A stretch of 48,195 nt of DNA, from positions 1 through 48,195 of the forward strand of contig JBMYQW010000001.1 of assembly GCA_049601735.1 (NCBI GenBank). Direction: 5' to 3'. The notes beneath the pieces were generated by a model. It ran no database searches, had not been told where the DNA came from, and saw only the letters and a list, made by a program, of their open reading frames with translations. Positions 22,558 to 47,370 of the stretch are shown here, piece by piece. The number at the start of each line of letters is the position of its first letter. Position 1 is the first letter of the stretch. Source of the DNA: Spirulinaceae cyanobacterium. Lineage in GTDB: Bacteria > Cyanobacteriota > Cyanobacteriia > Cyanobacteriales > Spirulinaceae. The translations under genes were made by a program, and so were the position numbers.

Positions 22558-23277
22558 ATGACAGCAGGTATGGCAATGGGGTCGTTGCTCCAGGTGGGGG
22601 ACTATTCTCTCACCCCCGACGAATTACTCGCTTGCTTACGGCGCTATCAGCTCCTGCCGCAGTTGGAGCGGGAACTACGGATTGACCGGGCGATTTCCGA
22701 AGTTGCCTGTAGTGAAAAAGAAGTGCAGTTTGCCTGCGAGCAGTTCTACGCTGGGCGTCAGCTCCAAGGTGAGGGGCAACGGCAACAATGGCATCAGCGC
22801 CAAGGGCTCTCGGTTGAAGATTTAACGGTCATGGCGAGTCGTCAGGTACGCCTTGCCAAGTTCAAGCAGCAGACCTGGGACCATCAGGTGGAGTCCTACT
22901 TCCTCAAGCGCAAGTCAGACTTGGATCGCTACAGTTTCTCTCTCTTGCGCCTGCCGGAGTTGGGCATTGCTCAGGAGCTTTACTACCGTTTGGAGTTGGG
23001 AGAGCAGACGTTCGCTCAGGTGGTCGCGGAGCAGGGCAGCGATGCAGAACGTCAAGCTGGGGGACGCATTGGCCCGGTCTCTCTGGGTCAGCTCTCACCC
23101 CCCCTGAGCCGTTGTCTCAAAGCCAACCCGCCGGGGACGGTTGTGCCACCGTTTGAGTTGGGAGAGGGCGTTGTCCTGGTTCAGGTGGGCGAGGTGCATC
23201 CGGCACGGCTCGATGAGGCGATGCGACGGCAACTCCTCGATGAGTTGTTCGAGCAATGGCTGGCAGGGCAATCATGA
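22558..23277 (+). CDS. Parvulin-like (PpiC-type) peptidyl-prolyl isomerase domain protein, first gene of the secretion operon
   Basis: This is track ORF 22522-23277, which starts on TTG. I prefer the in-frame ATG at 22558 (MTAGMAMGSLLQVGDYSLTPDELL...). The C-terminal half reads FAQVVAEQGSDAERQAGGRIGPVSLGQLSPPLSRCLKANPPGTVVPPFELGEGVVLVQV. This follows the parvulin pattern F..LA...S.D..S...GG.LG....G.L.P. The stop overlaps the possible ABC start at 23274 (ATGA). Confidence 0.6.
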   Translation: MTAGMAMGSLLQVGDYSLTPDELLACLRRYQLLPQLERELRIDRAISEVACSEKEVQFACEQFYAGRQLQGEGQRQQWHQRQGLSVEDLTVMASRQVRLAKFKQQTWDHQVESYFLKRKSDLDRYSFSLLRLPELGIAQELYYRLELGEQTFAQVVAEQGSDAERQAGGRIGPVSLGQLSPPLSRCLKANPPGTVVPPFELGEGVVLVQVGEVHPARLDEAMRRQLLDELFEQWLAGQS

Positions 23278-26200
23278 CGGGTCTCGATGGGCTTCCGCCA
23301 GCGGTACGGGAGGCATTTCAACCCGTGCAGTTCCCCATGGGTGCAACCCTCTTAGCTGCCGAGCAGGTTCCCGCTCAAGTGCTCTTTCTGACCTCGGGGC
23401 AGGCGCGTTTGCTGATTCATGACCCCCGCACCGAACGGCTGGTGCCCTTGGCTCGGTTGGAGGCGGGGGCGTTTCTCGGGGCGAATAGCCTGCTGCGGGG
23501 TGTTGCGGGGGTGGGGGCGATCGCCTCCACAGAGATCCTGGCGTTGATGATTCCGGCGGGTCAGTTTCTCTCGCTGGTGGCAGCCTATCCATCATTTGCC
23601 CAAAGGGTGAGTGAGCCCGCTTTGGAGGAAGTGGCTCAGGTGCTCTTGCAGCAGCTTGTCCGCCAAGCGGATGGCACTACCCCGATTCGTCCGCTGGCGC
23701 TGGAGGCATTTCCCCAAGCGCAATTGGGGTCTGGGGGTAATCCTGCTCTGTCAGAGCGTTATGGGCAGAGCAATGGTAATGATGCAATAGAGCGTCCCCT
23801 AGCCGACCTGTGGGCGGAGGAGATTCCCGAATTTTCGGGGTTGGTCTCTACTGCCAACCCTGCCGTACCCGTCACCCCCACATCAGGCTACTGTTGGTTT
23901 GTTTCCGGCGGAACGCTGGACTCCGAGCTGCTCTACAGCAGGATTGAGCAACCAGAGCCGTCGAGCCCATTGCGTCTGTTGGGACTGCCCTTAGAATTTC
24001 TGCCCTCCCGTCCCCAGCCAACCGATACCGCCCCGCCTGCTCCACCCCTCGCGCCTCGTCCCGAAGCCACATCTGACACCCGACACCCAATCCCCGACAC
24101 CCCGCCTCAATCTCCCCTTGCTCCTGCACCAAACCCCCACACCCCATCCCCAACACCCTCTACCCCTACCGCCGAAACGCCACCCAGCCTCAAAAAATAT
24201 CCCTATACCCACGGTTCCGGCCCCCTCCACGGCACGTTGGCTTGCTTCAAGATGCTTACCACCTTCCTGGAGCTGCCCTACCGCCCCGATGTGATGCGGC
24301 GGGTGTTGCAAGATCGCTTGCGTAAGGATGGCTCCCTCTCGTTGGAGTTCTGTGCGGCGATTGGGGATCTTTTAGGCTTACAAGTCCAGCTCACCCATTG
24401 CCCGGCGGAAGTTCTACCCCGTGTACCCACCCCGGCACTCCTGGCATGGGAGGATTCCTTTGCCGTGCTCTATGAAACCCGACCCAACCTCTTGGTCGTG
24501 GGCATTCCTGCGGCAGGGGTGCAACGCTATACACCCGCTGAACTCCAATCCCTTTGGGGCAATGAGGGGCCGGTCTTGCTGTTGCAGCGCACCCTAACCA
24601 CCCCCAAGCAACGCTTTGGCTTGTCTTGGTTTCTGCCTGCGGTCTCCCAATATCGCCGGGTACTGCTGGAGGTCTTTCTCGCTTCCTTCTTTGTCCAGCT
24701 CTTTGCCCTAGTCAATCCCTTGATGACGCAACAGATCATTGACAAGGTGATTGTCCAGGAAGCGCCGGATTCGCTACCCACGTTTGGCTTGATTCTCTTG
24801 GTCGTGGGCGTGTTTGAATCTTTGCTCACGGTCTTGCGTACCTATCTGTTTGTGGATACGACCAATCGGATTGACTATGGCTTGGGCTCGCAGATCATTG
24901 ACCATCTGCTGCGCCTGCCCCTGGGCTTCTTCAGTCGGCGGCCGGTGGGGGAATTAACCAGTCGGGTGAATGAGTTGGAGAATATTCGCCAATTTCTCAC
25001 GGGCACGGCGTTGACGGTGGTGCTCGATGCGCTGTTTTCGGTGATCTATGTGGCGATTCTCTTTTTCTACAGTGTCAAGTTGGCATTGGTGGCGCTGGCG
25101 GTTGTGCCGCTGTTTATCCTGCTGACGATTCTGCTCTCCCCAGAGATTCGTCGTCGCTTGCGGGTGAAGGCGGAGCGGAATGCGGCGACCCAGTCCCATC
25201 TGGTGGAAGTGCTCTCGGGTATGGAGACGGTGAAGGCACAGAACATTGAGTTGAAGTCACGGATGTCTTGGCAACAACGCTATGGACGTTACGTGATTGC
25301 GGGCTTTCGAGCGATTCAGCTCTCGACGGTTGCCAGTGCGTTGAGTGGCTTTTTGAATAAGTTCTCAGGACTGCTGGTGCTCTGGGCGGGGGCTTATTTG
25401 GTGATTGCCGGGGAGATGACGCTGGGGGAGTTGATTGCCTTTCGGATTATTGCGGGCTATGTGACGAGTCCCCTATTACGCCTCTCCCAACTCTGGCAAA
25501 ACTTTCAGGAGACGGCACTTTCTTTGGAGCGTTTGAGCGACATTGTGGATCATCCCCAAGAGGCGGAGGCGGATGCGCGGGGTAATCTGCCGATGCCGTT
25601 GGTGGCGGGCAAGATTGAATATGACCAGGTCTCGTTTCGCTTTGGCAATAGTGGCCCGTTGCAGTTGGATAATGTCTCGCTGGAGATTCCGGCGGGGGCG
25701 TTTGTGGGGATTGTGGGCTTGAGTGGCTCGGGGAAGAGTACGCTGACCAAACTATTACCACGTTTGTATCATCCCTTGGGGGGCAGGATTCTGGTGGATG
25801 GCTATGACATTCACAAAGTTGAACTCTATTCCCTACGACGCCAGATTGGCATTGTGCCCCAGAATACGCTGTTGTTTGAGGGCACGGTGCAGGAGAATAT
25901 TGCCCTGACCAACCCAGATGCGACGTTTGAGGAGATTGTGGCAGCGGCTGAGGTGGCAGCCGCTCATGATTTCATTATGGAGCTGCCCGCGGGCTACAAC
26001 TCCCTAGTGGGGGAGCGAGGCTCGAACCTGTCGGGGGGACAGCGTCAGCGGGTTGCCATTGCCCGGACGGTGCTCCAAGACCCCCGCCTGCTGATTATGG
26101 ATGAGGCGACCAGCGCCCTGGACTATGACACGGAGGCGCAGGTCTGTCGGAATTTAGTGCAGGCGTTCAAAGGACGCACGGTGCTGTTTATCACCCATCG

Positions 26201-26333
26201 CCTCAGAACCATCCAGAATGCTGACCGGATTGTGATGATGGGCAATGGCGCGATTCTGGAGCAGGGAAGCCATGAAGAACTGATGCAGTTGCGGGGCAGT
26301 TATTACTGTTTGTTTCGGCAGCAGGATGGGTGA
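23256..26333 (+). CDS. Type I secretion-type ABC exporter with an N-terminal cNMP-binding-like domain, a proline-rich linker, a non-catalytic C39-like domain, a TMD and an NBD
   Basis: 1025-aa ORF, with an alternative start at 23274. Walker A is GLSGSGKSTL, the signature is LSGGQRQR, Walker B is LLIMDEATSALD and the H-loop is FITHRL. The CAP-like segment is LFLTSGQARLLIHDPRTERLVPLARLEAGAFLGANSLL. The C39-like segment is GPLHGTLACFKMLTTFLELPY...LLAWEDSFAVLYE...VVGIPAAG. The proline-rich linker is encoded at about 24000-24180. Confidence 0.9.
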   Translation: MAGRAIMTGLDGLPPAVREAFQPVQFPMGATLLAAEQVPAQVLFLTSGQARLLIHDPRTERLVPLARLEAGAFLGANSLLRGVAGVGAIASTEILALMIPAGQFLSLVAAYPSFAQRVSEPALEEVAQVLLQQLVRQADGTTPIRPLALEAFPQAQLGSGGNPALSERYGQSNGNDAIERPLADLWAEEIPEFSGLVSTANPAVPVTPTSGYCWFVSGGTLDSELLYSRIEQPEPSSPLRLLGLPLEFLPSRPQPTDTAPPAPPLAPRPEATSDTRHPIPDTPPQSPLAPAPNPHTPSPTPSTPTAETPPSLKKYPYTHGSGPLHGTLACFKMLTTFLELPYRPDVMRRVLQDRLRKDGSLSLEFCAAIGDLLGLQVQLTHCPAEVLPRVPTPALLAWEDSFAVLYETRPNLLVVGIPAAGVQRYTPAELQSLWGNEGPVLLLQRTLTTPKQRFGLSWFLPAVSQYRRVLLEVFLASFFVQLFALVNPLMTQQIIDKVIVQEAPDSLPTFGLILLVVGVFESLLTVLRTYLFVDTTNRIDYGLGSQIIDHLLRLPLGFFSRRPVGELTSRVNELENIRQFLTGTALTVVLDALFSVIYVAILFFYSVKLALVALAVVPLFILLTILLSPEIRRRLRVKAERNAATQSHLVEVLSGMETVKAQNIELKSRMSWQQRYGRYVIAGFRAIQLSTVASALSGFLNKFSGLLVLWAGAYLVIAGEMTLGELIAFRIIAGYVTSPLLRLSQLWQNFQETALSLERLSDIVDHPQEAEADARGNLPMPLVAGKIEYDQVSFRFGNSGPLQLDNVSLEIPAGAFVGIVGLSGSGKSTLTKLLPRLYHPLGGRILVDGYDIHKVELYSLRRQIGIVPQNTLLFEGTVQENIALTNPDATFEEIVAAAEVAAAHDFIMELPAGYNSLVGERGSNLSGGQRQRVAIARTVLQDPRLLIMDEATSALDYDTEAQVCRNLVQAFKGRTVLFITHRLRTIQNADRIVMMGNGAILEQGSHEELMQLRGSYYCLFRQQDG

Positions 26334-26656
26334 AAGGGGAAGGATGAAGGATGAATAAATTGGCTGGTTTTGAGTGGCAAGTAAAAAGTAATGAGTTTTG
26401 GAGAAGTTCATAATGCGACCGTCTTTTAATTCCAGCCGGGTTGAGAATACTGGCCCCTATTGCAAGAGTCTGAGATGGCAATCTCCATCTCAGCAGGAGG
26501 TGTCGGGGGACTGGTCCCCTGACAACCGGGTTTGGCAGCGAGGTTGTTCGTTTTTCAAGGACGCGAATGGTGAGTGAACCATGACTTCTGTTTGCATCGA
26601 TGCAATGGATTGAACCAATATTTTTGAATTTCTACTTTTGAATTTTGCATTGAACC

Positions 26657-28162
26657 ATGCCCCAATCCTCCAAACCCCCCACCCAACCCACCAACCTCGT
26701 CCCCTTCCCCAACCAACCCCCAGGGGAGCTAACAGCCTTTGAAGATCCAATTCTGCTCAAACAATCGCCCTTTTGGTCACGATTACTCCTCTGGGCGCTC
26801 CTAACCATGACGACGTTTACGATTGGCTGGGTGTTTTTGGCGCAGATTGACCAGGTGGTCGTGGCTCAGGGGGAGTTGGAGCCCCAGGGCAAGGTGGAAG
26901 AGGTGCAGGCGGTGGCGAATGTCACGGTGGATGAGGTGCTGGTGGAGAATGGCGAAGTGGTGGAGCGGGGGGAGCGGTTGATTGCTCTGGATACAGCGGC
27001 GCTGGAGACGGAGCTGGAGAGTTTAAAGCGGCAGTTTTTGCTGCTGTCCCAGGAGACGGCGTTTTATCGGGCGCAGTTGGGCAATGGGTCATTGCAGGGG
27101 GTGGATCTGGCGTTGGTGGATGTGCCGGCGGATATTTTGTTTTTGGTCAGAGACCGGAGTAATTTGCTCGGTGAGATTGCCCTGCTGCGTTCGCAGTTGG
27201 GTCAGAGCTCGGGGGGACTTTCTGCGGAGCAGCGGGCGCGGTTGCGGAGTTCTCAGGCGAGTTTGCAGGCGCAGTTGCAGGTGGATGAGTTGGCGGTGTC
27301 TCAATTGCAGAGTCAGTTGGCGCAAACTAGGGTGGAGCTGGCAAATGCCCGGACGGATTTGGCATTAGAGCAGGATAAGCTCTCGCGCTATGAGGCGTTG
27401 GAGAAAGAAGGGGCGGTGGCGGAGTTGGTGACGATTGAGCAGGAACAGAAAGTGAATGGGGTGGAGACGCAGGTGGGGGTACTGACGAAGGAGGTGCAGC
27501 GGTTGGAGCGGGCGATCTCGCAGGCCCAGGCGACGGTTTCAACCACCGTGCATGGGGAGACAACGGCGGTGCAGGGGCGGATCGCCGAGGCGCAGCAGCA
27601 GCTCAAGGAGTTGGATGCGCGGTTGGGCAAGTTAATTGTGGACAATGAGCGGCAGTTGGCGCAGCTTGAGGGTGAAATTGAGCAGACGGAGGCGCTGCGG
27701 GTGGAGCATGAGTTGGTGGCGCCGGTGGCGGGGGTGGTGTTTGAGTTGGAAGCCTATGAGGGCTTGGTGGCGAATCGCTCGGAGGTGCTTTTGAAGGTGG
27801 TGCCGGGGGATGCGCTGGTGGCGGAGGTGTTTATTGCGGCGGATGATATTGCCTATGTGCAGCGGCAGATGGCGGTGGATGTGCGCCTGGAGGCGTTTTC
27901 GAGTAGTGATGGGGCGAAGGTTGAGGGGACGCTGATTTGGATTGGGGATGATGCGATTGAGCCGGATGAACTCAATCCCTATCATCGCTATCCGGCGAAG
28001 GTGCGGCTAGAGCAGCAAACAGTGGAGGTGCGGGGAGAGGTGAAGCGGCTGAAGCCGGGGATGCGGGTGAGTGCTTCGATTAAGGAGCGCAGGCGTCCGG
28101 TTTTTGCTGTGTTTGCGGATTTTTTGACGGACCGCTGGGATAGCTTGAAGAAGATGCGCTGA
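26657..28162 (+). CDS. HlyD-family membrane fusion (periplasmic adaptor) protein
   Basis: 501-aa ORF. It has an N-terminal cytoplasmic tail followed by one TM segment (FWSRLLLWALLTMTTFTIGWVFLA). The lipoyl-like hairpin reads VVAQGELEPQGKVEEVQA. A long coiled-coil section is rich in Q/L/E. The C-terminal beta-barrel motif reads LKPGMRVSASI. It sits downstream of the ABC gene. Confidence 0.85.
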   Translation: MPQSSKPPTQPTNLVPFPNQPPGELTAFEDPILLKQSPFWSRLLLWALLTMTTFTIGWVFLAQIDQVVVAQGELEPQGKVEEVQAVANVTVDEVLVENGEVVERGERLIALDTAALETELESLKRQFLLLSQETAFYRAQLGNGSLQGVDLALVDVPADILFLVRDRSNLLGEIALLRSQLGQSSGGLSAEQRARLRSSQASLQAQLQVDELAVSQLQSQLAQTRVELANARTDLALEQDKLSRYEALEKEGAVAELVTIEQEQKVNGVETQVGVLTKEVQRLERAISQAQATVSTTVHGETTAVQGRIAEAQQQLKELDARLGKLIVDNERQLAQLEGEIEQTEALRVEHELVAPVAGVVFELEAYEGLVANRSEVLLKVVPGDALVAEVFIAADDIAYVQRQMAVDVRLEAFSSSDGAKVEGTLIWIGDDAIEPDELNPYHRYPAKVRLEQQTVEVRGEVKRLKPGMRVSASIKERRRPVFAVFADFLTDRWDSLKKMR

Positions 28163-28461
28163 GGGGGATGTTCAGAAAACTGTGCCTGCTCCGGCTGGAA
28201 CCCTTGATTTTTCGTTGCCAGAATCGGGGGTTACACAAAATCCGGATCAGACCCTTCAGGGGAACGGGAGTGACGATGCTTTCTCTTACGTGATCTACTG
28301 CTGGTTCATCTAGCGTTTTTTAATCAGGCCAAGCCTTCCCAAACGGCAACCTTGCCGAGTAGCCGGGTTATCAGTCGCGGATTGGCCTATCTTTCCAAAT
28401 GACTTAGAAGTTTTTAATTCATCCTTTCAGAAACCAAATCTCACTTATCAGGGGTCACGCT

Positions 28462-28549
28462 ATAATGACCGACTCTTCATTTCTGAGGATTTATTGTTTA
28501 ACAGAAACGACATTCTGTTAAATAACAATTGAAGTAAAGTATTTTTGTA
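28462..28549. repeat. Left copy of an ~88-bp imperfect direct repeat (att-like site A)
   Basis: The sequence ttctgaggatttattgtttaacagaaacgacattctgttaaataacaattgaagtaaagtatttttgta aligns with 47302-47370, ttcttgaggattcattgttcaaccgaaaagacattctgttcaataaaacttggactatagagtatttgtat. Identity is about 75-80% by eye, with small indels. It is AT-rich and lies 145 bp beyond the stop of the 739-aa recombinase gene. Confidence 0.7.
28497..28522. promoter_or_regulatory. Candidate tyrosine-recombinase core site: perfect 10-bp inverted arms around a 6-bp spacer
   Basis: The sequence is tttaacagaa-acgaca-ttctgttaaa. The arm at 28497-28506 is the exact reverse complement of the arm at 28513-28522. The geometry (two inverted arms, 6-bp central region) matches Xer/Int core sites. 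Confidence 0.5.
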
Positions 28550-28692: not shown

Positions 28693-30912
28693 TTATTGCT
28701 GGCTCCTACACTTGCGCCGCTTATACTCCTGCAACTGATGCGGCGACAACAAATCAACTACATCAGGATCAAGATCGTGCGCATCTTTGAGACAGAGTTC
28801 CGCTGATGCCCCATCCACCTCAACAGCCTTCAACTCATACATCCCCTCAATCTCAGTGGCAAAGCGCTCCATCATATTCTGTGCCGGACGTAGCTCCTGA
28901 AAGCTCTGAAGTTCCGTGTAATTTTTGCGCTGCTGCTCCTCCGAGTGACGCTGCATCTTCGCCAGAGATCGCCGTTCTGCATCAGTGATGTTTTGCTCCA
29001 GGGCATAGGTCACTAGAATCGAGCGCAAGAGGTGCGGTCGAACCCCCGTATAGCCCGTAAACTGTGCCAACGCCCGCTCAAAAGCATACCCATAGTGACT
29101 GGAATCAACCGCTCGCCCCTTCTCGGTGGTAAAAAAATAATTGTGCAGCGGGTTCTGTCCCAAGAACGGACGCCATTGAGCCAACCACTCATCCATGTAG
29201 TCATAGAGAGTCTTCCCCGTACGAAAGCGACGATTGGGAATATGGCACGTCCAGCCACCCACATCGATCGTATTGCGTTTGCCATCCGCTGGCGTGAGAT
29301 CCAGCCACCACAATGCATTCTCCTGCTCCAATGGCGATAGCTTGTCATAGGGCGTAAAGGCAGTTCCTGTCGCGTTAAAGCAACCCCGAATCAACGTCTT
29401 ACCCAGCTCTAAACTGTAATAAACCTTGGAGCGGCCGGGGGGCAATGCCGTGGCGATCGCCAAGATCAGCGCCCGCTTTAAATCCCGGGCTATGGCGAGA
29501 TCACTACGGTCAACTTGGCAAATTCGGGGAGACCCATCAGCCCTTTGAGCTCGTTTCGTCCGGGTCACTTGGGTTTTGTCCTTCTGCTCATATTTCTGAA
29601 AGGCGAGATCAACTGCCAGAAATACGGCTGGCCAAGGCACCATACGCTGCCGTTTTGCCTGTTTCATTCGGGTCTTCTCTCCAGAGCTAATCGCCAATTC
29701 GCAATGGGTGTTCGCCAGTTGCCGGAAAGCACGAATAATGGGCACATCTTCAAAGCCACGCTCTGGCTTGAAATGTTCGGTCTGATCCGCGTACAAATAA
29801 CGGGCTAAGTTAATCCAACTTTTGGTGTAGTTCACCCGACTATCATGCTGGACATCCTTCGCGTTTAAATACCGTTCCAAGCGCTGTCGGGAGGTCTTGA
29901 CCGTTTCATCCAAGGTCTCCTGAGCCATCACTTTGGCGAGCGCCAGCTCCTCGCGGGCGCGGCGGGGATTATTCGGGTATTGTTTGCAGAACGTACTGAG
30001 GCGCAATGTTTTCGGCAGCGGCGGTGCCTCGACGAGATCCTGCAAAGAGAGTTCAGCCAAAGGAATCTTCTCGGTGGTCACCACCCAATCGAAGGCTCGC
30101 AATATTTCGTGGACATCTCGCCGTACGGTTTGAAAAGAGCGGTTACAACGACAGAATAGAAAATTGGCAAATTCCAGCAGGCTACGATCCAGATCGGGGT
30201 TCCCCAACGCCAGCGCCGGTTCAATAGTCCTCAAGACTATCCAGAGCAGGATGAGCCCCAGCTTGTGGGAGCGCAGGCTGACGCCAGCCGCAGCCATGAA
30301 CATCTGATGCCACCCAAAAGGAATCACCGGGGCTGCGACCACTTGATAATGGGCTAAGTCTCGCCCAAACATTTGATTGGCAAAGCTCCGACCCCGCTTA
30401 TTCACATTGGGCGGAGCACCCTGACTATGGCGATAGATCACCAGGGGCTCTGGGGGGTCGGGCTCGGCGCTGAACCAGTCTTGTTGTTGCATCCACTGCT
30501 CAAATGCTTTGAACTTCGAGCGCAGATTGTTTTGCACCGATTTGGGCAGCTGGGCCTGCTTGCTGTATTGTTCAATCTTCTCATCCACATTGGTGAGGGC
30601 GGTGAGGGGTAAGTCAGCGAGGAATGCTTGCGCTTCCTGGCTCGCTTGATGAGTGAGTCGGGCACAGGTATGGCTGGGCCCGCCTAATGCGGGGGTTAAA
30701 TGACGGAAGAAAACCGATTGGACTCCTTTTTTCTGACTATCACTCACGTCAGGTTCTTCAAGGAAGAACGTTAATGCTTGGCCGACAGATTGGGGTCGTG
30801 TCACTTGAGACAATGGCACTTCAAGGAACTGTTGGTTGGCATCCGCCACGATTGTGGTGAAACCGGGAACTTGGTAGTCCGTCTGGGTTGAATAATGCGG
30901 GGTAAAATCCAT
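28693..30912 (-). CDS. Large divergent tyrosine recombinase (739 aa from the ATG at 30912), with a C-terminal catalytic domain and an ~470-aa uncharacterised N-terminal region
   Basis: This is track ORF 28693-30969, which starts on TTG. The ATG at 30912 gives MDFTPHYS.... The catalytic-domain motifs appear in order: ATALPPGRSKVYYSLELG (Arg I), GVRPHLLRSILVTYAL (His-x-x-Arg) and MQRHSEEQQRKNYTE (His ... Tyr). Confidence 0.7.
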   Translation of the reverse strand: MDFTPHYSTQTDYQVPGFTTIVADANQQFLEVPLSQVTRPQSVGQALTFFLEEPDVSDSQKKGVQSVFFRHLTPALGGPSHTCARLTHQASQEAQAFLADLPLTALTNVDEKIEQYSKQAQLPKSVQNNLRSKFKAFEQWMQQQDWFSAEPDPPEPLVIYRHSQGAPPNVNKRGRSFANQMFGRDLAHYQVVAAPVIPFGWHQMFMAAAGVSLRSHKLGLILLWIVLRTIEPALALGNPDLDRSLLEFANFLFCRCNRSFQTVRRDVHEILRAFDWVVTTEKIPLAELSLQDLVEAPPLPKTLRLSTFCKQYPNNPRRAREELALAKVMAQETLDETVKTSRQRLERYLNAKDVQHDSRVNYTKSWINLARYLYADQTEHFKPERGFEDVPIIRAFRQLANTHCELAISSGEKTRMKQAKRQRMVPWPAVFLAVDLAFQKYEQKDKTQVTRTKRAQRADGSPRICQVDRSDLAIARDLKRALILAIATALPPGRSKVYYSLELGKTLIRGCFNATGTAFTPYDKLSPLEQENALWWLDLTPADGKRNTIDVGGWTCHIPNRRFRTGKTLYDYMDEWLAQWRPFLGQNPLHNYFFTTEKGRAVDSSHYGYAFERALAQFTGYTGVRPHLLRSILVTYALEQNITDAERRSLAKMQRHSEEQQRKNYTELQSFQELRPAQNMMERFATEIEGMYELKAVEVDGASAELCLKDAHDLDPDVVDLLSPHQLQEYKRRKCRSQQ

Positions 30913-31413
30913 AGTGAGTCTGACCGTAAATAAGCCTTTAACCGATGATATGAATATCGCAACTCTCAACAGTGCGATCTGGCGAATAAATTTTTCCTGC
31001 TCACCTCTACGATGAGGTTTTTATTACAAAATCAGGCATTTATCTAGTTATACCAGATTTCGATATAGCCGTACTAAAGGCGGTTTTAAATGATCTTTTT
31101 CCTAGCCCAGATCCCTAAAAACCTTGATTGATAGGGGTTTCAGGTTGACGAGCAAAATTTGGTTTGTAATAAAAAAATTTTTGGCTTATTACAGCGAATT
31201 TTGAGGGTTTATGCGCATAAATGGATGAATTTCAGGATCGAGCTTTGGGCATAGCCGTTATTCTGTAATAAATTTTTTCGAGGATTTTCGAGAAAGATCC
31301 TGCATGTGTCGTGCCCGAGGAGGGCTCTGCACTGCCAAATTTGATTTCAGCGGATTGGACAACTGGCGATCGAGAAATTCAGATAATCGTTTATCACGAT
31401 TCAATGGATAGCA

Positions 31414-31763: not shown

Positions 31764-34700
31764 CTAGGCGATCACCGGCTGCAATGTGCTCGATAGGGAA
31801 GTTATCCGCCAATTTTCGCAGGGAGAGGATGTTTGAACAGGCACTTGTTCCTCTTCTTTCCTCCCCCAGGCCACCCCTGGTAAAAGATATTTCATAAGGG
31901 GGGTGGCCGCTGGAGTTAATCCTTGTTGGAAGTGGTCTGGAGCTCGTTTGAGCAGTAGATCTTGCAAGGTATCAAAAGAATCCAGATGCACTTCATATCG
32001 CCGCGCCCGTTCGCCCTTGAGAGTAATCCGCTTAGAGCAGGTCTTGAGCCCATACCGCCGCAGGATTTCGCCCACAATTTGCACACCCGTCATTTTGGCA
32101 GGATTAAACCCGAGGCATAGCCGCACATCCTCAGAACAAGCCCGTGCCCGGTCTCCAACCGCTTTCACCCAAGGTGTATCCCGATACCAGCCTGCACCGG
32201 TGGCAGTTGCCTCTAGACATTTCTCTAGCAGTGCCGGAACCTCGAGGGCGATCGCCGCTTTAGCCTCGAATTCATCGCAGGGCCGGTCGTGGGGGGCGAT
32301 TGGTTGGTTCCAGCGGGTCAAGAGGGCCAGCTGGGCATCATCCTTTGCTTGTGCCAGTCCCTCCCAGAGCAGGTTCTCCAGTCGTGAGACATTGCGCCGG
32401 TAGCGACCCTTGCCATCAGCTTTAACCGCCTCGGGGGTGAGGGTCTCGGGGTGGATGTGGAAGAAGTCGCAAATCTTGAAGCGTTCTAGTTGCAGGGATT
32501 CAGCATGAGTGAGGGAGAGCTTCTCCTGTAAGGCTTTGGCGCGATCGCCATTAATGATGAGGGAGTCCACCACCTCAGGGAAATAGCGATCGCGCACCGC
32601 TTGAAGCCATCCCTGCCAGCGCTGGGCAGCAGCATCCGCCGCGCCGGTGGGAGTCCCGAGAGTCACGGTATGACCTGCGGCTTCGAGTCCTGCCTGGAGA
32701 TATGCGCCGAAATCTGCCATGGCTCGGTTTCGGGCAGCAGCTGCGGTTGCGATGTAGGCGGTGATCGCCTCGTGCTGGAGTGCAAACGAGCGGCCGGTGG
32801 CTTGGGTGTAGCGGCTTTCTTGACGGTCAAGATTCCTCTGGTAATCCCTGGCGTTGGTCGCACCGTTTTGATCCTTTACTCCCCGCGCCGCTGCAAAGAC
32901 GATTCGGGGCACGGCGGGACGACAGCGGGCGAGCTGCTGGATGGCGTCATTGGGGGCAATGGTCTTGCCCTCGAACAATCCCCCCACAAAATCAAAATAC
33001 TCCTCCTCAATGTTGATGCCGGAGGTCAGGGAGCTGTTGTGAATGACCAGGACGATGCCATGTTCCCTGAGCCATTTGGCCTTATCTTTGGCATCCAGGA
33101 ATGACTGCTGGAGTTTATTGCCCGAGGTTTCCCTGGTGATGGTCAGGATCGCTTCGGGGGGAACGCCGAGGGATTCAGCCATGAGCCTGAGTGCCTTAGC
33201 ACTAATGCGTTGGTCGCAGGCAATAATGCCAAATTCGCCGCGCCGGATACGGGTTTCAATCTCAGCGATCGCCGCGCCCCGTGCCTGCTTCTGAGCACCA
33301 GGGGCAGAGTCGTGGGTATAGAGGGTGATGGGATAAGCATTACCCTGGTAGTCGTTTTGCAGAATCCAGGGCTGCTCCTGCCGTAGAGCTACGAGGAGCT
33401 TAATATCCTGAGCTGAGAGCGTGCCAGATGCCGCAATCACCAGCCGCGCCCCATGAATCCGGTCAATGCCCCGTGCCACAATTCCGGGCCGCTTGCCGCC
33501 TTTTGCAACGGTTGCACCCTTGAGCAGATGCCAGAATCCCTGGTCTACCTCGTCGAGCACCAGAATGTACGAGCCATCGGGGAATAGCAGTGCCGGAACC
33601 TTCAGCAGCGAATCCCAGCAGAGGGAGACCCGCTTGGTGGGTAGCCCAGCTCGACTGATGATGTAGCCGCCGCCGAGATCAACTTCGCCGATGTATTCCA
33701 ACCCCAGACTTGTGGCCAAAGCGGTTTGCAAGCTGGCCCGATGACCTGGGGCTATCACCGCTTCGCAGTCAGCGATCAGCTTTTCAATGAGTTTGGTTTT
33801 CCCGGTTCCCAGTCCGCTGTGCAGAATGACAATTCCTTCGTTTTGGATGCTCTCTGGGGCGATCGCTGCGCCGAGGCAAGGGACATTCACCCGTAGGTTG
33901 GGTTGATACTTGCCGAGGGGGTTCTTTACTGCATTCCGTGCCTTGTAGAGCGCGTAGAGAGTTGCACCGGCGATCGCCTTCTCCATCGCTGCTGGCCCAG
34001 ACTTGGCAATCAAGTCATCCAGTCCCTTACCTTGCCTTGGCTGCCATTGAGCCACGGAGAGCACTGCCCCCCTGGAGCCGATTGCCCCACGGAGAATGCC
34101 GATGCCCTGTTTGACTGCTTTTTTGGCGCTGCCTTTGGTGTCGGCATCGAAGGCGACGCTAATGAGCCGTCCTGGTGTGAGGAAGGGGACGAGGTCTTCA
34201 GAGCGACCGCATTTGCAACCATAGAGGGCGATCGCGATGTATCCCTGAGAGAGTGCTGCGAGGGCTTTTTTGGCCCCTTCGGTGATGACGAGCGGCAGCT
34301 CGGGGTGGGTTTCAACCCATGCCCAAAAGCTGCCATGGTCAGTGATTTCTGAGGAGACAGATTTGAAGTTGAGGCTGTGGCGATCGCAGATGAGCTTCAA
34401 TACCGCATCGGGGATGGGCGGCAGATACGCCCGGTTCCCAATGCCCTTAGGGGCAAGGTATTTTCCGCGCCGCCCGTCGGCCTGGAGAACCCCCAGCTCC
34501 CGCTTTACCTGCCAGACGGAACTATCCTCGTTTCGGAAGATCAAGCCTTGTTCGTTGGCTTTTGCCTGCCGACCGAATCGGGTATATCGCTTGCCCAGTG
34601 CATCGTCTAGGGGGGTGGCGATCGGTTCTCTGGTGGTGGGGTGGTACTCGATCTCCTTAGCAATCTCGACTGCTCTGCCGATGAAGCTGGGATGGATTGC

Positions 34701-34820
34701 GGATTGTTCCAGCTCTAGTTCGGGAGATTCTGGTGGGTGTGGTGAGCCTGGTTTGGAGGGTTCTGAAGGGAGTCCAATTGTCCGCCTTAAAGCGGCATCA
34801 CAGTTTTGGAGGCGAGTCAT
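31764..34820 (-). CDS. Plasmid replication protein of the cyanobacterial CyRepA type: Toprim-like DUF3854 domain plus a P-loop helicase/NTPase
   Basis: 1018-aa ORF. The Toprim-like block reads LPLVITEGAKKALAALSQGYIAIALYGCKCG...SVAFDADTKGSAKKAV...GKGLDDL. Walker A is HSGLGTGKTK and Walker B is ILVLDEVDQ. Similarity to Synechocystis pSYSA Slr7037-type Rep proteins is from memory and not searched. Confidence 0.72.
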   Translation of the reverse strand: MTRLQNCDAALRRTIGLPSEPSKPGSPHPPESPELELEQSAIHPSFIGRAVEIAKEIEYHPTTREPIATPLDDALGKRYTRFGRQAKANEQGLIFRNEDSSVWQVKRELGVLQADGRRGKYLAPKGIGNRAYLPPIPDAVLKLICDRHSLNFKSVSSEITDHGSFWAWVETHPELPLVITEGAKKALAALSQGYIAIALYGCKCGRSEDLVPFLTPGRLISVAFDADTKGSAKKAVKQGIGILRGAIGSRGAVLSVAQWQPRQGKGLDDLIAKSGPAAMEKAIAGATLYALYKARNAVKNPLGKYQPNLRVNVPCLGAAIAPESIQNEGIVILHSGLGTGKTKLIEKLIADCEAVIAPGHRASLQTALATSLGLEYIGEVDLGGGYIISRAGLPTKRVSLCWDSLLKVPALLFPDGSYILVLDEVDQGFWHLLKGATVAKGGKRPGIVARGIDRIHGARLVIAASGTLSAQDIKLLVALRQEQPWILQNDYQGNAYPITLYTHDSAPGAQKQARGAAIAEIETRIRRGEFGIIACDQRISAKALRLMAESLGVPPEAILTITRETSGNKLQQSFLDAKDKAKWLREHGIVLVIHNSSLTSGINIEEEYFDFVGGLFEGKTIAPNDAIQQLARCRPAVPRIVFAAARGVKDQNGATNARDYQRNLDRQESRYTQATGRSFALQHEAITAYIATAAAARNRAMADFGAYLQAGLEAAGHTVTLGTPTGAADAAAQRWQGWLQAVRDRYFPEVVDSLIINGDRAKALQEKLSLTHAESLQLERFKICDFFHIHPETLTPEAVKADGKGRYRRNVSRLENLLWEGLAQAKDDAQLALLTRWNQPIAPHDRPCDEFEAKAAIALEVPALLEKCLEATATGAGWYRDTPWVKAVGDRARACSEDVRLCLGFNPAKMTGVQIVGEILRRYGLKTCSKRITLKGERARRYEVHLDSFDTLQDLLLKRAPDHFQQGLTPAATPLMKYLLPGVAWGRKEEEQVPVQTSSPCENWRITSLSSTLQPVIA

Positions 34821-35131: not shown

Positions 35132-35601
35132 GGGAAGCTCTATCTCAGCAACGCAGACTTGCTTAAAAAGTCAGGTTGTCTGGGGAAAAATGGACATGAC
35201 AAACTCTCCCCGTGAGCAAGATGCCGTGCTAAGATAGGCACACGGTTGCAAGCCCAAAGGGTATGCTGCCGGCTCCAGAGTTAAGGAGCGGCTAAAATGA
35301 ATAGCTTTTCTTTTGAGGAGTAATCGCTAGCAGTCCCGCCAAAGACATAAGCGATTGCTTCTCTTGCTATTTAGGGGTGTTGAGCATGGAAATCGGGTTC
35401 TATAGGCACTTCTCCTAGTTATTGATACAAAGATTCGATTCAAGGATCATACCCTCTTTGCTGGGGAATCGTGCGGTTGATGTTGAATCAATCAATTGAT
35501 TTCTCTGTATTAAATTGGGATGGAGAGGTGTGATCTTGCATTGTCCAGATACCAGTCAGCCGTGAGCATCTTGGCGATCGCCTCCACAGCTTTGTCCTTC
35601 A

Positions 35602-36267
35602 CTACAAATCCTCAGGATTAACACCCAGCTCCCGCAGTTTGGCGAAGGCGCGATCGCGTTCGGCTTGAGCGACCTCTTCCCCCAGAGCGAATGCTTCAGG
35701 GTCTTTGAATGGCTTACCGTTCGGGTGGAATACGGCCAAGCCGTCCTCAAGCATCTCGAACCGAATCCCCAGTAGGGGGGAAGTCCAAGGCAGATTGGCG
35801 GGAATGACAGCACTTGGGGAATCTGTTGTATTCTCTCGCGCCAGTCCCCAGAACTCATGGGAATCCGGATCGTAGAAGTACATCTCCAGAACACCGTGTT
35901 TGATGTAAAACCCTTGCTTGGCAAACATTTCCGCTACGGTGTTGCTGGGTGAAATGATTTCAAAAACCACCTGGGGGGCGACGCCATCCTCTTTCCACTG
36001 CTGATAGCTGCCGCGATCGCCCTCGGGACGCCCCAAGACCACCATGGCATCTGGGGCCTGACGGGGTGCGGTTTCCCCTTTGCCAACTTGAACGGGATAC
36101 CAAAGCAAGTCTCCAGCGACAAATGCAGTTTGGTCTTTGAGCAGGTGTCTCAGGTTGGTGACAAGACGGGTAATCCATTGATACTGCTTAGTATTGTCAG
36201 CCATGGGTTTGCCATCTGAGTCGGGGTATTGGGTTTCGAGTTCGGGTCTGATGGGGGTTTGAACCAT
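35602..36267 (-). CDS. Uma2-family (DUF820) PD-(D/E)xK-like endonuclease, copy 1
   Basis: 221 aa. Family-typical strings are YPDSDGKPMADNTKQYQWI, AFVAGDLLWYP, PDAMVVLGRPEGDRGSYQQWKEDGVAPQVVFEIISPSN and GVLEMYFYDP. Confidence 0.8.
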   Translation of the reverse strand: MVQTPIRPELETQYPDSDGKPMADNTKQYQWITRLVTNLRHLLKDQTAFVAGDLLWYPVQVGKGETAPRQAPDAMVVLGRPEGDRGSYQQWKEDGVAPQVVFEIISPSNTVAEMFAKQGFYIKHGVLEMYFYDPDSHEFWGLARENTTDSPSAVIPANLPWTSPLLGIRFEMLEDGLAVFHPNGKPFKDPEAFALGEEVAQAERDRAFAKLRELGVNPEDL

Positions 36268-36375
36268 GGGTTTGAGTTCTCCGTTTCGGGTAGTCTATTT
36301 GCATGAGGCTTCTTCTCTTGAATGGCGCAATCGCTGATCTGAACCATTGCATCGAAGTACCTTTAGCTGTGGTGG

Positions 36376-37086
36376 TCATTTCAAATCCTCAGGATTGACA
36401 CCCAGCTCCCGCAGTTTGGCAAAAGCGCGATCGCGTTCGGTCTCGGTCTGTCCAAGTTTGGCTTCGGTCTGGGTGAGCTGGGCTTTAGCCTCGTTTCGTT
36501 CTTTCGCCAACTCAGAAAAAGTCTTGAAGGGCTCTCCATTGGGGTAGAACATCTCTAAGCCATCCTCCTGCATCTCGAACCGAATCCCCAGCAGGGGTGA
36601 AGTCCAAGGCAGATTGGCGGGAATGACAGCGATTGGGGAATCTGTTGCATTCTCTCGCGCCAGTCCCCAGAACTCATGGGAATCCGGATCGTAGAAGTAC
36701 ATCTCCAGAACACCGTGTTTGATGTAAAACCCTTGCTTGGCAAACATTTCCGCTGCGGTGTTGCTGGGTGAAATGATTTCAAAAACCACCTGGGGGGCGA
36801 CGCCATCCTCTTTCCACTGCTGATAGCTGCCGCGATCGCCCTCGGGACGCCCCAAGACCACCATGGCATCTGGGGCTTGTCTGGGTGCGGTTTCCCCCTT
36901 TTCGACTTGAACGGGATACCACAGCAAGTCTCCGGCGACAAATGCGGTTTGGTCTTCGAGCAGTAGTTTCAAGTTCTCGACAATGCGGACAATCCACTGG
37001 TACTGCTTCGTGTTGTCAGCCATGGGTTTACCGTCTGAGTCGGGGTAGAGGGTTTCAATTTCGGTTTTGATGGGGGTTTGAACCAT
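36376..37086 (-). CDS. Uma2-family (DUF820) PD-(D/E)xK-like endonuclease, copy 2, with a longer C-terminal coiled-coil tail
   Basis: 236 aa, with the same motifs as copy 1. The extra C-terminal segment reads FSELAKERNEAKAQLTQTEAKLGQTETERDRAFAKLRELGVNPEDLK. Confidence 0.8.
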   Translation of the reverse strand: MVQTPIKTEIETLYPDSDGKPMADNTKQYQWIVRIVENLKLLLEDQTAFVAGDLLWYPVQVEKGETAPRQAPDAMVVLGRPEGDRGSYQQWKEDGVAPQVVFEIISPSNTAAEMFAKQGFYIKHGVLEMYFYDPDSHEFWGLARENATDSPIAVIPANLPWTSPLLGIRFEMQEDGLEMFYPNGEPFKTFSELAKERNEAKAQLTQTEAKLGQTETERDRAFAKLRELGVNPEDLK

Positions 37087-37091
37087 GGGTT

Positions 37092-37649
37092 TTAGTTCTT
37101 CGTTTCGGGTAGTTTGTAAGGGTCATGTCCTAGCTGCCGGAGCCGTTCGAGGAAGCGATCGCGCTCCCATCGGATTTCGTCGTCAATGGCCATCCCCTCC
37201 CCAACGTCTTGGAGAAACCGCCACATTTCATCAATCTGGGTTTGTAGCCGTTGGTTCCGCTCGGACTCGCTGCGCTCGACACCAAAGGCTGCGTCAAAGC
37301 GGCGTTCTAGGGTTTCGGGGGCGATCGCCATCACCAAAGCCATCGCCTCTTTATTCCCTTTTGAACATTCCCAGACCCAGTAGGCAGTGACAACGTTAAG
37401 CGGTAAGGCGTTGAACCGGGTTTGCCCACGATAATCTGACTCAACCTCTAAAGTGACGGCCGTGTACTCTTTACCCAGTAAGGTTTTGATGCCCTTTGAT
37501 CCCAAAAAGCGACGGGCGCTCGATTCGGGCTTGCTGATGCACTCAGCCGCCTGGGTCTGACTCAGCCGATAGGAGCCATCGGGTAGCATATAGCCCTCTA
37601 AGGTACGGCTGCCAAGTTGAATTTGAGCGCGTTTGGCTTTGATCGTCAT
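37092..37649 (-). CDS. Conserved hypothetical 185-aa protein, possibly DNA-binding and P63C-like (very tentative)
   Basis: The ORF is in the operon. Its start overlaps the upstream gene's stop (ATGA at 37649-37646), and its stop lies 5 nt before the Uma2 copy 2 start. The sequence reads LEGYMLPDGSYRLSQTQAAECISKPESSARRFLGSKGIKTLLG. The family name is a weak recollection. Confidence 0.55.
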   Translation of the reverse strand: MTIKAKRAQIQLGSRTLEGYMLPDGSYRLSQTQAAECISKPESSARRFLGSKGIKTLLGKEYTAVTLEVESDYRGQTRFNALPLNVVTAYWVWECSKGNKEAMALVMAIAPETLERRFDAAFGVERSESERNQRLQTQIDEMWRFLQDVGEGMAIDDEIRWERDRFLERLRQLGHDPYKLPETKN

Positions 37650-37966
37650 TGTTTGAATGCCTCATCAAACTTTTGAGTCAGCCCGCCCTGAACGTAGGTA
37701 ATGCAGTTTTGAATCGCCTCATCCTGCCCCAGTCGCACGTTCATCAGCAGTGGCATGGGGTTGTCACATTCACCTCCTGCATGGATGCATTCCAATATGA
37801 GTGATTCGGTTTTAGGGTTGCCTTCGTAATATTGCCAAGTCCAAAGCGATGCAGTGGCCCACAAGTTGCAGGTGGCTTCTTGTCTGCCGTCTTCGGTCTC
37901 AACAATTTGGCCCCACTCGGCGAGGGGATGGCGGAATTTTGGGGGGATGTTGTCAAAATCAGTCAT
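37646..37966 (-). CDS. Hypothetical 106-aa protein
   Basis: ORF in an operon context on the minus strand with a 4-nt overlap to the downstream gene. No motif recognised. Confidence 0.5.
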   Translation of the reverse strand: MTDFDNIPPKFRHPLAEWGQIVETEDGRQEATCNLWATASLWTWQYYEGNPKTESLILECIHAGGECDNPMPLLMNVRLGQDEAIQNCITYVQGGLTQKFDEAFKQ

Positions 37967-40822: not shown

Positions 40823-40871
40823 CCATTATTAAACCGTTGTGCCGTCAGGGTTCTGGCGGCTTTACTTTGTC

Positions 40872-42101
40872 ATGAGTGAGCAGAAATTATCTAAGGATGA
40901 ACTGATCTATCGTGCTCAGTGTGAGGCGATTCGGAACCGTTACGCCGTCCTGAAATATGGGGGACTAGGCTTGCTCATCTTGGGTGGGCCGATGGCGTTT
41001 GCGACTGCTGGCTGGGCTGGGGTCGCAGGTGTTGGGGCTGTGCTGGTGGGCGGGTTCTTCTCTGCTAACCAGGGGGCTGATCAAGATTGTGAAAAGCTCG
41101 ATCGGGGAGACAAGCGCCTGCTGAAACAGTTCACGCCCCGGAAGTTATGGCCCGAGCTGTACCAAGCGTTTGCCCCTGGAAGCGATGCGGCTGCAACCTT
41201 ACCGGCCGGTAAACCCATCGCCCCGTGGGAGCCGTCCAAGTTTGACGCTAAAGCATTGCTCGATCGCGGTGTGGGCATCCTCTTGGCAGGCAACCCCGGC
41301 AGTGGCAAAAGCACTTTAGCCCGGTACATCTTGCAGCAGGCTGCCGCACCTCTGATCCGGCTCGACCCGCACTTTAAAGCGGGGGTTCCGGTCGGTGACG
41401 CCCTGGTCATTCAGGATAAAGACGCCATCATCAAAGCAATGGAATACCTGTTGACCCTGATCGACAAACAGGACGATCGCCCGCTCAATATCTTGGTGGG
41501 TGAGGTTCCGTCGATTCGGCTCTATGCCAAGCGCCAGAAGCGCCTGGATTTGGTGGATGAGTTTATCTTGAGGTTTGGGGCCGAGGCGCGGAAGTACAAA
41601 AAGATCGCCATCCTTGAGAGTCAGAGCGGCAATGTCAAAAGTTTTGGTCTGGAGGGCCAAGGGGATTTCATTGAGTCGTTCACGTTCATCCGTCTGGGGA
41701 AGCTGGCCGTTAAACACGCCTACACCCAACCGAATCGGGAGCAGTATCACTGGCTTAACCAACAGAGTTACGCTTTGACGGTGGATGGTCAGGATGCTGC
41801 TTTGCACCCCTGTCTGGGGCATCACCAAATGGTTGATAATTCCAACGCGCCGATCCGGTTGACGGAGGCCAAGTTTCCACCGTTACCAGCGGATATTCGA
41901 GCCGCATTGGTGGGGGCTATTGATGATGATGACAGTGTGGAGTCTCCCCCAGGTCAATCACAGCGAGCATCCCAGGCGTCATCAACACCATCATCAACGA
42001 CAGCGACCTGCCCTTCCTGCGAGAGTCCTGAGACGGTGAAGAATGGGGCGGGTCGCCGGAAGTGTAAGGCCTGTGGGGTGACGTTTGCCGATCATGGGTA
42101 G
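40872..42101 (+). CDS. Membrane-anchored P-loop NTPase with a C-terminal zinc ribbon (409 aa from the ATG at 40872)
   Basis: The track ORF starts on GTG at 40839; the ATG at 40872 gives MSEQKLSKDEL.... Two N-terminal hydrophobic segments are present (GGLGLLILGGPMAFATAGWAGVAGVGAVLVGGFF). Walker A is LLAGNPGSGKSTL. The C-terminus reads CPSCESPETVKNGAGRRKCKACGVTF, a CxxC...CxxC arrangement. Confidence 0.65.
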   Translation: MSEQKLSKDELIYRAQCEAIRNRYAVLKYGGLGLLILGGPMAFATAGWAGVAGVGAVLVGGFFSANQGADQDCEKLDRGDKRLLKQFTPRKLWPELYQAFAPGSDAAATLPAGKPIAPWEPSKFDAKALLDRGVGILLAGNPGSGKSTLARYILQQAAAPLIRLDPHFKAGVPVGDALVIQDKDAIIKAMEYLLTLIDKQDDRPLNILVGEVPSIRLYAKRQKRLDLVDEFILRFGAEARKYKKIAILESQSGNVKSFGLEGQGDFIESFTFIRLGKLAVKHAYTQPNREQYHWLNQQSYALTVDGQDAALHPCLGHHQMVDNSNAPIRLTEAKFPPLPADIRAALVGAIDDDDSVESPPGQSQRASQASSTPSSTTATCPSCESPETVKNGAGRRKCKACGVTFADHG

Positions 42102-43254: not shown

Positions 43255-44175
43255 TCATGGTTCTTCTAACAGAGTGTCGATCTGCTCCAAAAGCGCTTGA
43301 ACCTGCTGCCATTTTTTAGGGTTTCTCTCCCAAAATTTACTCTTTTGTAAGCGTTGGTAAGTTGACTTCAGTTGAGTTTGAGGTTTGCTGCTTTGTTCCG
43401 TCTTGCTCACTAGAGCTGCTATTCGTTCTTTGATCTGGGTTAGTGAGAGTTGTTCGGCGATCGCCGCCTTGAGAATTTTTCGTCGCTGGCGAGTATCTTT
43501 CACTTTGGCGATCGCACGGGCTTTCGTAAATTGAATCTGACCTAAGCGCAGAGCTTCGATTATGTCATTAGGTAGGTTGAGTAGAGGGAGGCGATGTGTA
43601 CGAAATGATTCAGCGGAAAAACGTCCTAGCTTTGTGAATAGCTCATCGATAAGATTTTGTTCTTCTGGGCGGACAACGTTGTCCGCTACGCCACGTTGCT
43701 GCTTGGCAGACTGGTTAAGCAAACGAATCACATCATCTTGGGAGCGCTCAAGGCGTATTGCCAAGAGCTGCAAGATACTTTCTGTTTCCTCTATGGGGTT
43801 TAAATCTTCACGCTGGAGATTTTCAATCAGTGCGACTGCGATCGCTTGCTGGTCGTCTAGCTGGTGGCTCACGACCGGAATTTCGTGCAGTCCAATTTCT
43901 TGAGCGGCTCGGTATCGACGCTCACCGGCCACAAGTTCATATTTGTCACCTTTCGGTCGGACTAATAGGGGTTGGAGGATACCGTGTTCTTTAATAGATG
44001 CGATCAGGCTCTCCATGGCTGTTGGATCAAAATAGCGTCGGGGCTGTTGTTCAGGCAGAACGATTTTGTCGATCGCGACCGTGGTGATCGGTTGATTGGT
44101 TGAGTCAATTGAGTCAAACAGTCCAACGTTTTTCATGGTTCGGCGTTTGGCTGGAGGAGGAGTACGATTACTCAT
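43255..44175 (-). CDS. parB: ParB/Spo0J-family partition protein
   Basis: 306 aa. Motifs: IDKIVLPEQQPRRYFDPTAMESLIASIKEHGILQPLLVRP...YELVAGERRYRAA. The start overlaps the parA stop (TGATG). Confidence 0.9.
   Translation of the reverse strand: MSNRTPPPAKRRTMKNVGLFDSIDSTNQPITTVAIDKIVLPEQQPRRYFDPTAMESLIASIKEHGILQPLLVRPKGDKYELVAGERRYRAAQEIGLHEIPVVSHQLDDQQAIAVALIENLQREDLNPIEETESILQLLAIRLERSQDDVIRLLNQSAKQQRGVADNVVRPEEQNLIDELFTKLGRFSAESFRTHRLPLLNLPNDIIEALRLGQIQFTKARAIAKVKDTRQRRKILKAAIAEQLSLTQIKERIAALVSKTEQSSKPQTQLKSTYQRLQKSKFWERNPKKWQQVQALLEQIDTLLEEP
43669..43686. promoter_or_regulatory. Candidate parS-like centromere site (18-bp perfect palindrome), copy inside parB
   Basis: gcggacaacgttgtccgc is identical to the copy at 44999-45016. 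Confidence 0.5.
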
Positions 44176-47197: not shown

Positions 47198-47285
47198 TTA
47201 TACTCTTTCGTTGCATGGAGGTTGTTTTGTTCTTGGGTTGAGTGTAGCATCAAGTTGTACAGCATAAAAAGATATTATGTTGCTT

Positions 47286-47370
47286 AATAACGGTCGTTCT
47301 ATTCTTGAGGATTCATTGTTCAACCGAAAAGACATTCTGTTCAATAAAACTTGGACTATAGAGTATTTGT
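47286..47370. repeat. Right copy of the ~88-bp imperfect direct repeat (att-like site B)
   Basis: It aligns with 28462-28549 (see that feature). It starts about 90 bp upstream of the integrase ATG at 47197. Confidence 0.7.
47319..47344. promoter_or_regulatory. Candidate recombinase core site in repeat B: imperfect arms with the same 6-bp spacer geometry
   Basis: The sequence is ttcaaccgaa-aagaca-ttctgttcaa. The left arm has 2 mismatches to the reverse complement of the right arm. The string gacattctgtt is shared exactly with site A. Confidence 0.45.

Follow-up and report, generated by a model that had tools for sequence, protein, structure and literature searches.

How did a segment of 18.8 kb carrying its own replication and partition genes come to lie next to a type I secretion locus in a Spirulinaceae cyanobacterium, and do the two similar sequences at its ends mark the places where it was joined to its neighbours? 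The window, that is the whole stretch of DNA analysed here, covers 48,195 nt of a contig of 52,992 nt, and the molecule that hosts the segment may be a chromosome or, alternatively, a plasmid of about 53 kb.

The repeat pair and its dif-geometry cores

The initial annotation had reported direct repeats of roughly 75-80% identity at 28462-28549 and 47286-47370, and this description proved accurate. The repeat finder returned a direct family (D18) with copy A at 28463-28549 and copy B at 47285-47371, 87 nt long, 75% identical without gaps and spaced by 18,822 nt, and a MAFFT alignment placed the two copies in the same register. Counted position by position, 65 of 87 match without gaps. With a match probability of 0.29, taken from the local base composition, the corresponding binomial tail is 1.9e-18, or about 2e-9 after correction for every position pair in the window. 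Identity peaks in the central 41 nt (28485-28525 against 47307-47347, 36/41 matches) and is only about 60% in the outer 22-24 nt. A degenerate pattern of these 41 nt, with up to three mismatches allowed, retrieved copies A and B alone, with no occurrence in 100 shuffles. Exact matches between the copies reach at most 11 nt.

The centre of copy A consists of perfect 10-bp inverted arms, TTTAACAGAA (28497-28506) and TTCTGTTAAA (28513-28522), on either side of ACGACA (28507-28512). The equivalent stretch of copy B (47319-47344) reads TTCAACCGAA-AAGACA-TTCTGTTCAA, its arms being complementary at 8 of 10 positions, and the string GACATTCTGTT is identical in both copies. Read directly, arms, spacer and shared string are as the initial annotation gave them, and the Xer/Int-type geometry that it had proposed turns out to be more Xer-like than claimed: with one extra base on each side, both cores become 28-bp sites of 11-6-11 layout (11-bp arms around a 6-bp centre). 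Core A then occupies 28496-28523, GTTTAACAGAA-ACGACA-TTCTGTTAAAT, with arms complementary at 10 of 11 positions, and core B occupies 47318-47345, GTTCAACCGAA-AAGACA-TTCTGTTCAAT. The right arm of core A matches the XerD-binding arm of E. coli dif, TTATGTTAAAT (PMC3025954), at 10 of 11 positions. The overlap regions, ACGACA in A and AAGACA in B, are identical at 5 of 6 positions, which fits the need of canonical strand exchange.

A dispersed repeat or a MITE was considered as the origin of the pair and rejected. A core pattern with 22 specified bases gave no match in 596 Gb of genomes and none in the metagenome collection, and a blastn search of both cores against PLSDB returned nothing similar, just a chance match at the start of a Nostoc gene. 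A looser core pattern had five matches in viral contigs, in low-GC phage DNA and without flanking similarity. The concern that the 88-bp unit might be dispersed can thus be set aside, since the pattern scans found two copies in the window and none in the genome and metagenome collections. The absence of a tRNA or tmRNA at either end, also noted at the outset, was confirmed by ARAGORN, which detected neither in the whole window, and by an Rfam search around both copies, in which nothing came near the gathering score. A genomic island or prophage of the tRNA-targeting kind was rejected because neither boundary holds a tRNA or tmRNA. Nothing meaningful was found either when known RNAs, promoters and terminators were considered at the repeats, and a search of the flanks for remnant recombinase genes found none.

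A plasmid-type replicon with two tyrosine recombinases

The segment between the repeats encodes on the minus strand a 1018-aa replication protein of the CyRepA1 family (31764-34820; DUF3854 in Pfam, together with a helicase region), which scores 217 bits against the NCBIfam model NF042913 (cut-off 200). CyRepA1 is Slr7037, the replication protein of the Synechocystis plasmid pSYSA (PMC10079941). Relatives of the protein encoded here occur on 236 PLSDB records, and the organisms among those listed are cyanobacteria. A partition operon recognised by Pfam, also on the minus strand, spans 43255-44945, with ParA at 44175-44945 and ParB at 43255-44175. Following the minus strand from copy B, the genes come in the order XerD-like recombinase, YhcG-type nuclease, ParA, ParB, a P-loop ATPase with several genes of unassigned function, two Uma2-family paralogues, CyRepA1, a small ORF and a large recombinase. 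The presence of CyRepA1, ParA/ParB and two recombinases makes the segment a complete plasmid-type replicon. A megablast of the whole segment against PLSDB gave no match.

Other genes of the segment include a P-loop ATPase with a C-terminal zinc ribbon (40839-42101, plus strand), which we count as cargo, and two small minus-strand genes encoding 185 and 106 aa (37092-37966), collinear with genes of the related contig L002 (60% and 72% identical). Next to these lie the tandem Uma2 genes, which encode putative endonucleases (35602-37086, minus strand; 35602-36267 and 36376-37086; repeats D4 and D20). Their duplication can be followed at the nucleotide level (35588-36004 and 36365-36823), with 300 nt at 93% identity and a further 76 nt downstream at 87%.

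Just inside each repeat copy, the initial annotation had placed a tyrosine recombinase gene, and both assignments are borne out, one by database matches and the other by family evidence. The gene beside copy B (46217-47197, minus strand, start at 47197) begins 121 nt from core B and encodes a 326-aa XerD-like protein, which matches Pfam Phage_integrase at 9e-21, the NCBIfam XerD model at 2e-35 (under its equivalog cut-off) and the E. coli XerD structure (PDB 1a0p) at 1.5e-15. Its nearest relatives in PLSDB, at 45-47%, are encoded by small plasmids of proteobacteria, where rep, par and toxin-antitoxin genes are their neighbours.

The adjoining gene encodes a YhcG/DUF1016 PD-(D/E)XK nuclease (45087-46145, plus strand), a PADLOC candidate defence protein of family PDC-S02 and a recurrent neighbour of the XerD-like integrase family: the two genes adjoin in three loci, namely the window and contigs L003 (nuclease at 2319-3332) and L006 (8699-9784). 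The position and orientation of the nuclease gene vary from locus to locus, suggesting a linked two-gene module that has been rearranged.

A second dif-like site, TACAGCATAA-AAAGATA-TTATGTTGCT, is found at 47258-47284, 61-87 nt upstream of the integrase start, where it abuts the inner edge of copy B. Sites of the form CATAA-N7-TTATG occur at this place in the window and at L003 3405-3421, L004 9931-9947 and L006 9940-9956, with spacers ending in CTTT or CTCT, and in L002 (9888-9922) the variant GATAA/TTATC has arms that pair perfectly over 14 bp. The motif is kept about 45-105 nt upstream of the start of the XerD-like integrase in otherwise unrelated cyanobacterial contexts, and it is probably a cognate site or an operator of this family.

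The gene beside copy A (28693-30969, minus strand) has its stop at 28693, 169 nt (about 170 bp) from core A, and its ORF encodes 758 aa; a 739-aa form (P0121) would start at 30912. The protein falls below Pfam thresholds and has no Pfam match of its own; it has a weak XerC match at residues 580-693 and a PHROG integrase match at 2e-6. A full HMMER scan gathered 334 representative clusters of this family, mostly of 600-700 aa. In 35 aligned members, R513, K564, R649, H675 and Y684 are invariant, 15 of the 35 match Pfam Phage_integrase (PF00589) on their own, and the family profile matches XerD (1a0p) at 1e-7 from box II to the tyrosine region. Based on this conserved catalytic set and on the profile, PHROG and Pfam matches, the 758-aa protein is a large, divergent tyrosine recombinase. 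In PLSDB the family is present on 12 plasmids, all of them cyanobacterial and including the small pANACY.05 and Calothrix p9.

No counterpart of the core was found in L002, in L007 (the locus of the closest large-recombinase homologue, 66% identical) or in other loci of the integrase family, nor did any other cyanobacterial locus compared contain a similar site. Because the core is conserved neither beside the L007 homologue nor in L002, neither enzyme can be assigned to it by co-variation. L007 holds the sole close homologue of the large recombinase, and the region downstream of that gene has a MITE insertion and, at best, a half-site. The insertion (L007 2849-3020) is a miniature inverted-repeat element just downstream of the homologue, with terminal inverted repeats of about 17-19 bp (CTTAGTGGTGCAGAAAA…) and a 10-bp target duplication (CTGAGCACCC). 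In L018 (35% identical) and L002, GC-rich or AT-rich hairpins with 6-bp loops follow the large-recombinase gene, and terminators explain them equally well. On the Anabaena plasmid pANACY.05 (L027), two inverted arms around a 6-bp spacer, AGGCGTTCTA-TTTATT-TAGAACGCTT, occur upstream of the homologue at 95-140, and a further arm copy in direct orientation follows them; the large-recombinase family may recombine at this sequence.

Integrated state and alternative readings

Both junctions of the segment were recovered independently. In Logan contigs of run SRR27204700, the assembly crosses them at 100% identity (L010, corresponding to window 35809 to 28200, and L001, 47723 to 42813). An assembly chimera was therefore rejected, since the two assemblies agree and the copies share no exact match longer than 11 nt, too short for the repeats to have led an assembler to link a free plasmid with foreign DNA. 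No circular junction was found in SRR27204700: its contigs that carry the integrase and large-recombinase genes show the same order as the window. A look-up of the 199-aa form of the XerD-like integrase returned nothing.

The nearest homologue of the integrase (70%) is on L002, the 29.9-kb Logan contig SRR22824324_36791, whose gene order is a homologue of the 106-aa protein (72%), of the 185-aa protein (60%), Uma2 (81-85%), a small protein, CyRepA1 (76%), a 692-aa protein and the integrase. The 692-aa protein is distantly related (20%) to the large recombinase and has its catalytic motifs, and 333 bp separate its gene from that of the integrase. L002 thus runs collinear with the window from 37966 to 28693, with protein identities of 60-85%, and then from 47197 to 46220, which is the order expected if the window segment were closed on itself at the repeats. 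We regard this comparison of gene orders as the strongest support for an integrated plasmid.

The segment is bounded on the left by a gene of the HlyD membrane-fusion family (26657-28162, plus strand), which belongs to a type I secretion locus and lies outside the element; copy A is between the convergent ends of this gene and of the large recombinase gene. The HlyD gene is beside a C39-peptidase/ABC exporter gene (23256-26333), whose product has a cyclic-nucleotide-binding domain at its N-terminus, and this gene adjoins an ORF on the minus strand that exceeds 7,342 codons and runs off the left end of the window (1-22876). This giant ORF has internal repeats of about 1,836 nt (sub-periods of 600 and 1,233 nt) at 16.2-21.1 kb and shorter periodic motifs at 9.3-14.8 kb, and it probably encodes a type I-secreted repeat protein. 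Between exporter and HlyD genes, a 109-nt stretch (26444-26550) is 80% identical to an intergenic sequence in a different gene context of another cyanobacterial assembly (L016 16937-17044, GCA_039180005.1), and may represent a dispersed element of regulatory or repeat type. The right flank holds a minus-strand gene (47542-48195) for a protein of roughly 224 aa, function not assigned, which runs off the end of the window. About 40 nt past its stop and outside the repeat unit, a perfect 9-bp inverted repeat, ATCTCAAGA-N9-TCTTGAGAT (47480-47506), is probably the terminator hairpin of this gene. Both the GCGATCGC motifs and every close homologue indicate that the DNA is cyanobacterial.

An empty site was sought through both flanks, and none was found. 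The right-flank gene has 88% identical orthologues in two other cyanobacterial assemblies (L016 and L017), in which similarity to the window is lost at the stop codon or 11 nt past it; the DNA that follows is unrelated to the window and differs between the two. On the left, scans of the genome and metagenome collections with the HlyD protein gave only relatives of 24-34% identity, and an exact look-up of the protein returned just a 1.7-kb contig of run SRR27204700.

We propose that the 18.8 kb are a small cyanobacterial CyRepA1 plasmid integrated in another replicon between the type I secretion locus and the unrelated right-flank gene, and we give this reading, including an exchange within the 28-bp cores, a probability of about 0.6. 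It draws directly on the repeats with their core geometry, on the plasmid-type genes and the pair of recombinases, on two independent assemblies that show the segment integrated and on the circularly permuted gene order of L002, and the 87-nt repeats are then best read as its attL-type (copy A) and attR-type (copy B) junctions. Mechanistically, a tyrosine recombinase would bind the arms of the cores, most likely an enzyme encoded by the element itself, either the XerD-like or the large recombinase. Strands would be exchanged across the 6-bp overlap, ACGACA in A and AAGACA in B, and at integration the site on the plasmid would have recombined with a homologous one that the host molecule already had. 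Run in reverse, the reaction would, if excision still takes place, free a circle of 18,822 bp that is self-sufficient in replication and partition; the initial annotation had likewise predicted that recombination between the two cores would excise a circle of ~18.8 kb.

The likeliest competing explanation, which we nevertheless consider rather unlikely, is that the contig of about 53 kb is a plasmid cointegrate of two circles and that the repeats are multimer-resolution or cointegrate sites. The chemistry would be unchanged, and the arc with the secretion and adhesin genes would equally be the 'insert'. The contig is indeed just 52,992 nt long, the context of the right-flank gene is variable in all three genomes that have it, and the company that PLSDB relatives of the XerD-like enzyme keep (rep, par and toxin-antitoxin genes) suggests a role in maintenance or resolution. 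However, the ORFs scanned in the rest of the window include no second replication or partition module and nothing points to circularity of the contig. Moreover, an active resolution system would resolve directly repeated sites on one circle, yet both junctions were stably assembled.

It is also conceivable, but quite unlikely in our view, that the same element crossed over at the integrase-proximal CATAA-N7-TTATG site, into the end of an older related element, in which case the 87-nt repeats would be the site-adjacent homologous sequence of two tandem elements. The motif resembles the inner arms of dif and occurs once in each of these loci, namely those of the window and of L003, L004/L005 and L006 (three independent relatives), with the variant in L002; the repeats abut it on one side only. 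Outside copy A there is, in addition, a lone half-site, TTATCAGGGG (reverse complement CCCCTGATAA, 28445-28454), that resembles an arm of the integrase-proximal site of L002. The similarity of the copy-A side to the integrase-proximal sequence of L002 stops exactly at this half-site, where CCCCTGATAA matches the L002 arm at 8 of 10 positions, and the half-site is possibly the relic of an earlier element. On the other hand, the overlaps that such a crossover would have left are unrelated (GTGAGAT at A, TATCTTT at B), whereas the canonical two-step exchange leaves identical ones; the A junction has no right arm and the window contains one match to CATAA-N7-TTATG; and the arms of the reconstructed plasmid site would match at only 5 of 9 positions, when those of the relatives are near-perfect. 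On these sequence criteria an exchange in the 28-bp cores is to be preferred by a fair margin: (i) its overlaps are identical at 5 of 6 positions and those at the other site are unrelated, (ii) the alternative gives the plasmid badly matched arms unlike those of its relatives and, (iii) only the 28-bp cores form a pair able to recombine today. Either crossover needs a target that was itself a related, probably relic, site, which would explain why similarity extends beyond the core and reaches the half-site outside copy A.

A reading in which the repeats are no recombination sites but a duplicated RNA or protein-binding element, for instance an operator, partition site or small RNA, and lie near the segment ends by chance is highly improbable: the core is missing from related loci and copy B, upstream of the integrase gene, could be in the position of an operator, but copy A lies between two convergent gene ends with nothing to regulate, Rfam gave no match and no terminator-like feature occurs at the core, the substitution at mirror positions of the copy B arms breaks pairing, the repeats are far from parAB, and the sites are exactly where the contiguous gene order of L002 is broken.

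Relation to known elements and implications

The actinomycete elements pSAM2 and SLP1 and the integrative plasmids of archaea are replicating circles with an integrase gene beside the attachment site; they insert by site-specific recombination, come to be flanked by direct repeats, and their excision regenerates the plasmid. Their targets are usually tRNA genes, with a core sequence that is identical in element and target. The integrated CyRepA1 plasmid proposed here shares with such elements a replication and partition module of its own, a recombinase gene adjoining the attachment site and flanking direct repeats, but it differs from them by the absence of a tRNA, by its diverged repeats (75%), by a CyRepA1-type replicon with ParAB and by its two tyrosine recombinases.

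Its flanks recall elements integrated at dif. The CTX and VGJ phages (IMEX) have no recombinase of their own and rely on host XerCD at the chromosomal dif, where the gonococcal genetic island is also inserted. Here too, direct 28-bp sites of the 11-6-11 Xer type bracket the element, one of them being nearer to perfect symmetry. Unlike an IMEX, the element encodes an XerD-like enzyme and a second recombinase, and it does not fit the IMEX definition because the recombinases are its own.

Within cyanobacteria, the nifD (XisA) and hupL (XisC) elements of heterocystous species are flanked by short direct repeats and have a tyrosine recombinase gene just inside one end. They interrupt a gene that must be restored and carry no replication or partition genes. 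The present segment resembles them as a cyanobacterial segment with short direct repeats and a tyrosine recombinase gene just inside the end, but both of its sites are intergenic and the segment is a replicon; it is therefore not an excision element of the heterocyst type. A last point of comparison is offered by cer, psi and the pdif modules of Acinetobacter (PMC6449649), which likewise are Xer-type cores located on plasmids beside maintenance genes and in which recombination between two sites fuses or separates circles. These systems depend on XerCD of the host and, in the case of cer and psi, on long accessory sequences, whereas the units described here are of about 87 nt and the recombinases are plasmid-encoded.

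Prediction of dif by sequence profile failed for cyanobacteria (PMC3025954). If the sites described here are active, they would provide an example of dif-like sites in a phylum without a defined dif. It is tempting to go further and to speculate, at long odds, that the core is the native dimer-resolution (dif-type) site of the host replicon and that the CyRepA1 plasmid is a dif-targeting episome, switching between an autonomous and an integrated state with its own XerD-like enzyme and possibly the large recombinase. If this were true, the locus would be a first point of entry to the dif-type sites of cyanobacteria.

Site-specific integration of plasmids is well known, and the mobile element proposed here is thus of a familiar kind, in a group where it is little documented. 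Its interest lies in the CyRepA1 context, in the dif-like sites and in the uncharacterised large-recombinase family. That family, plasmid-borne and counting 334 representative clusters, has no assigned role, and the member encoded here is one of two candidate recombinases of the locus. CyRepA1-type plasmids are being developed as vectors and their interplay with other replicons is poorly documented; the locus would present such a replicon while integrated, and its candidate attachment sites are located to the exact base. Should these sites be active, they would constitute a natural integration and excision module for cyanobacterial genetics.
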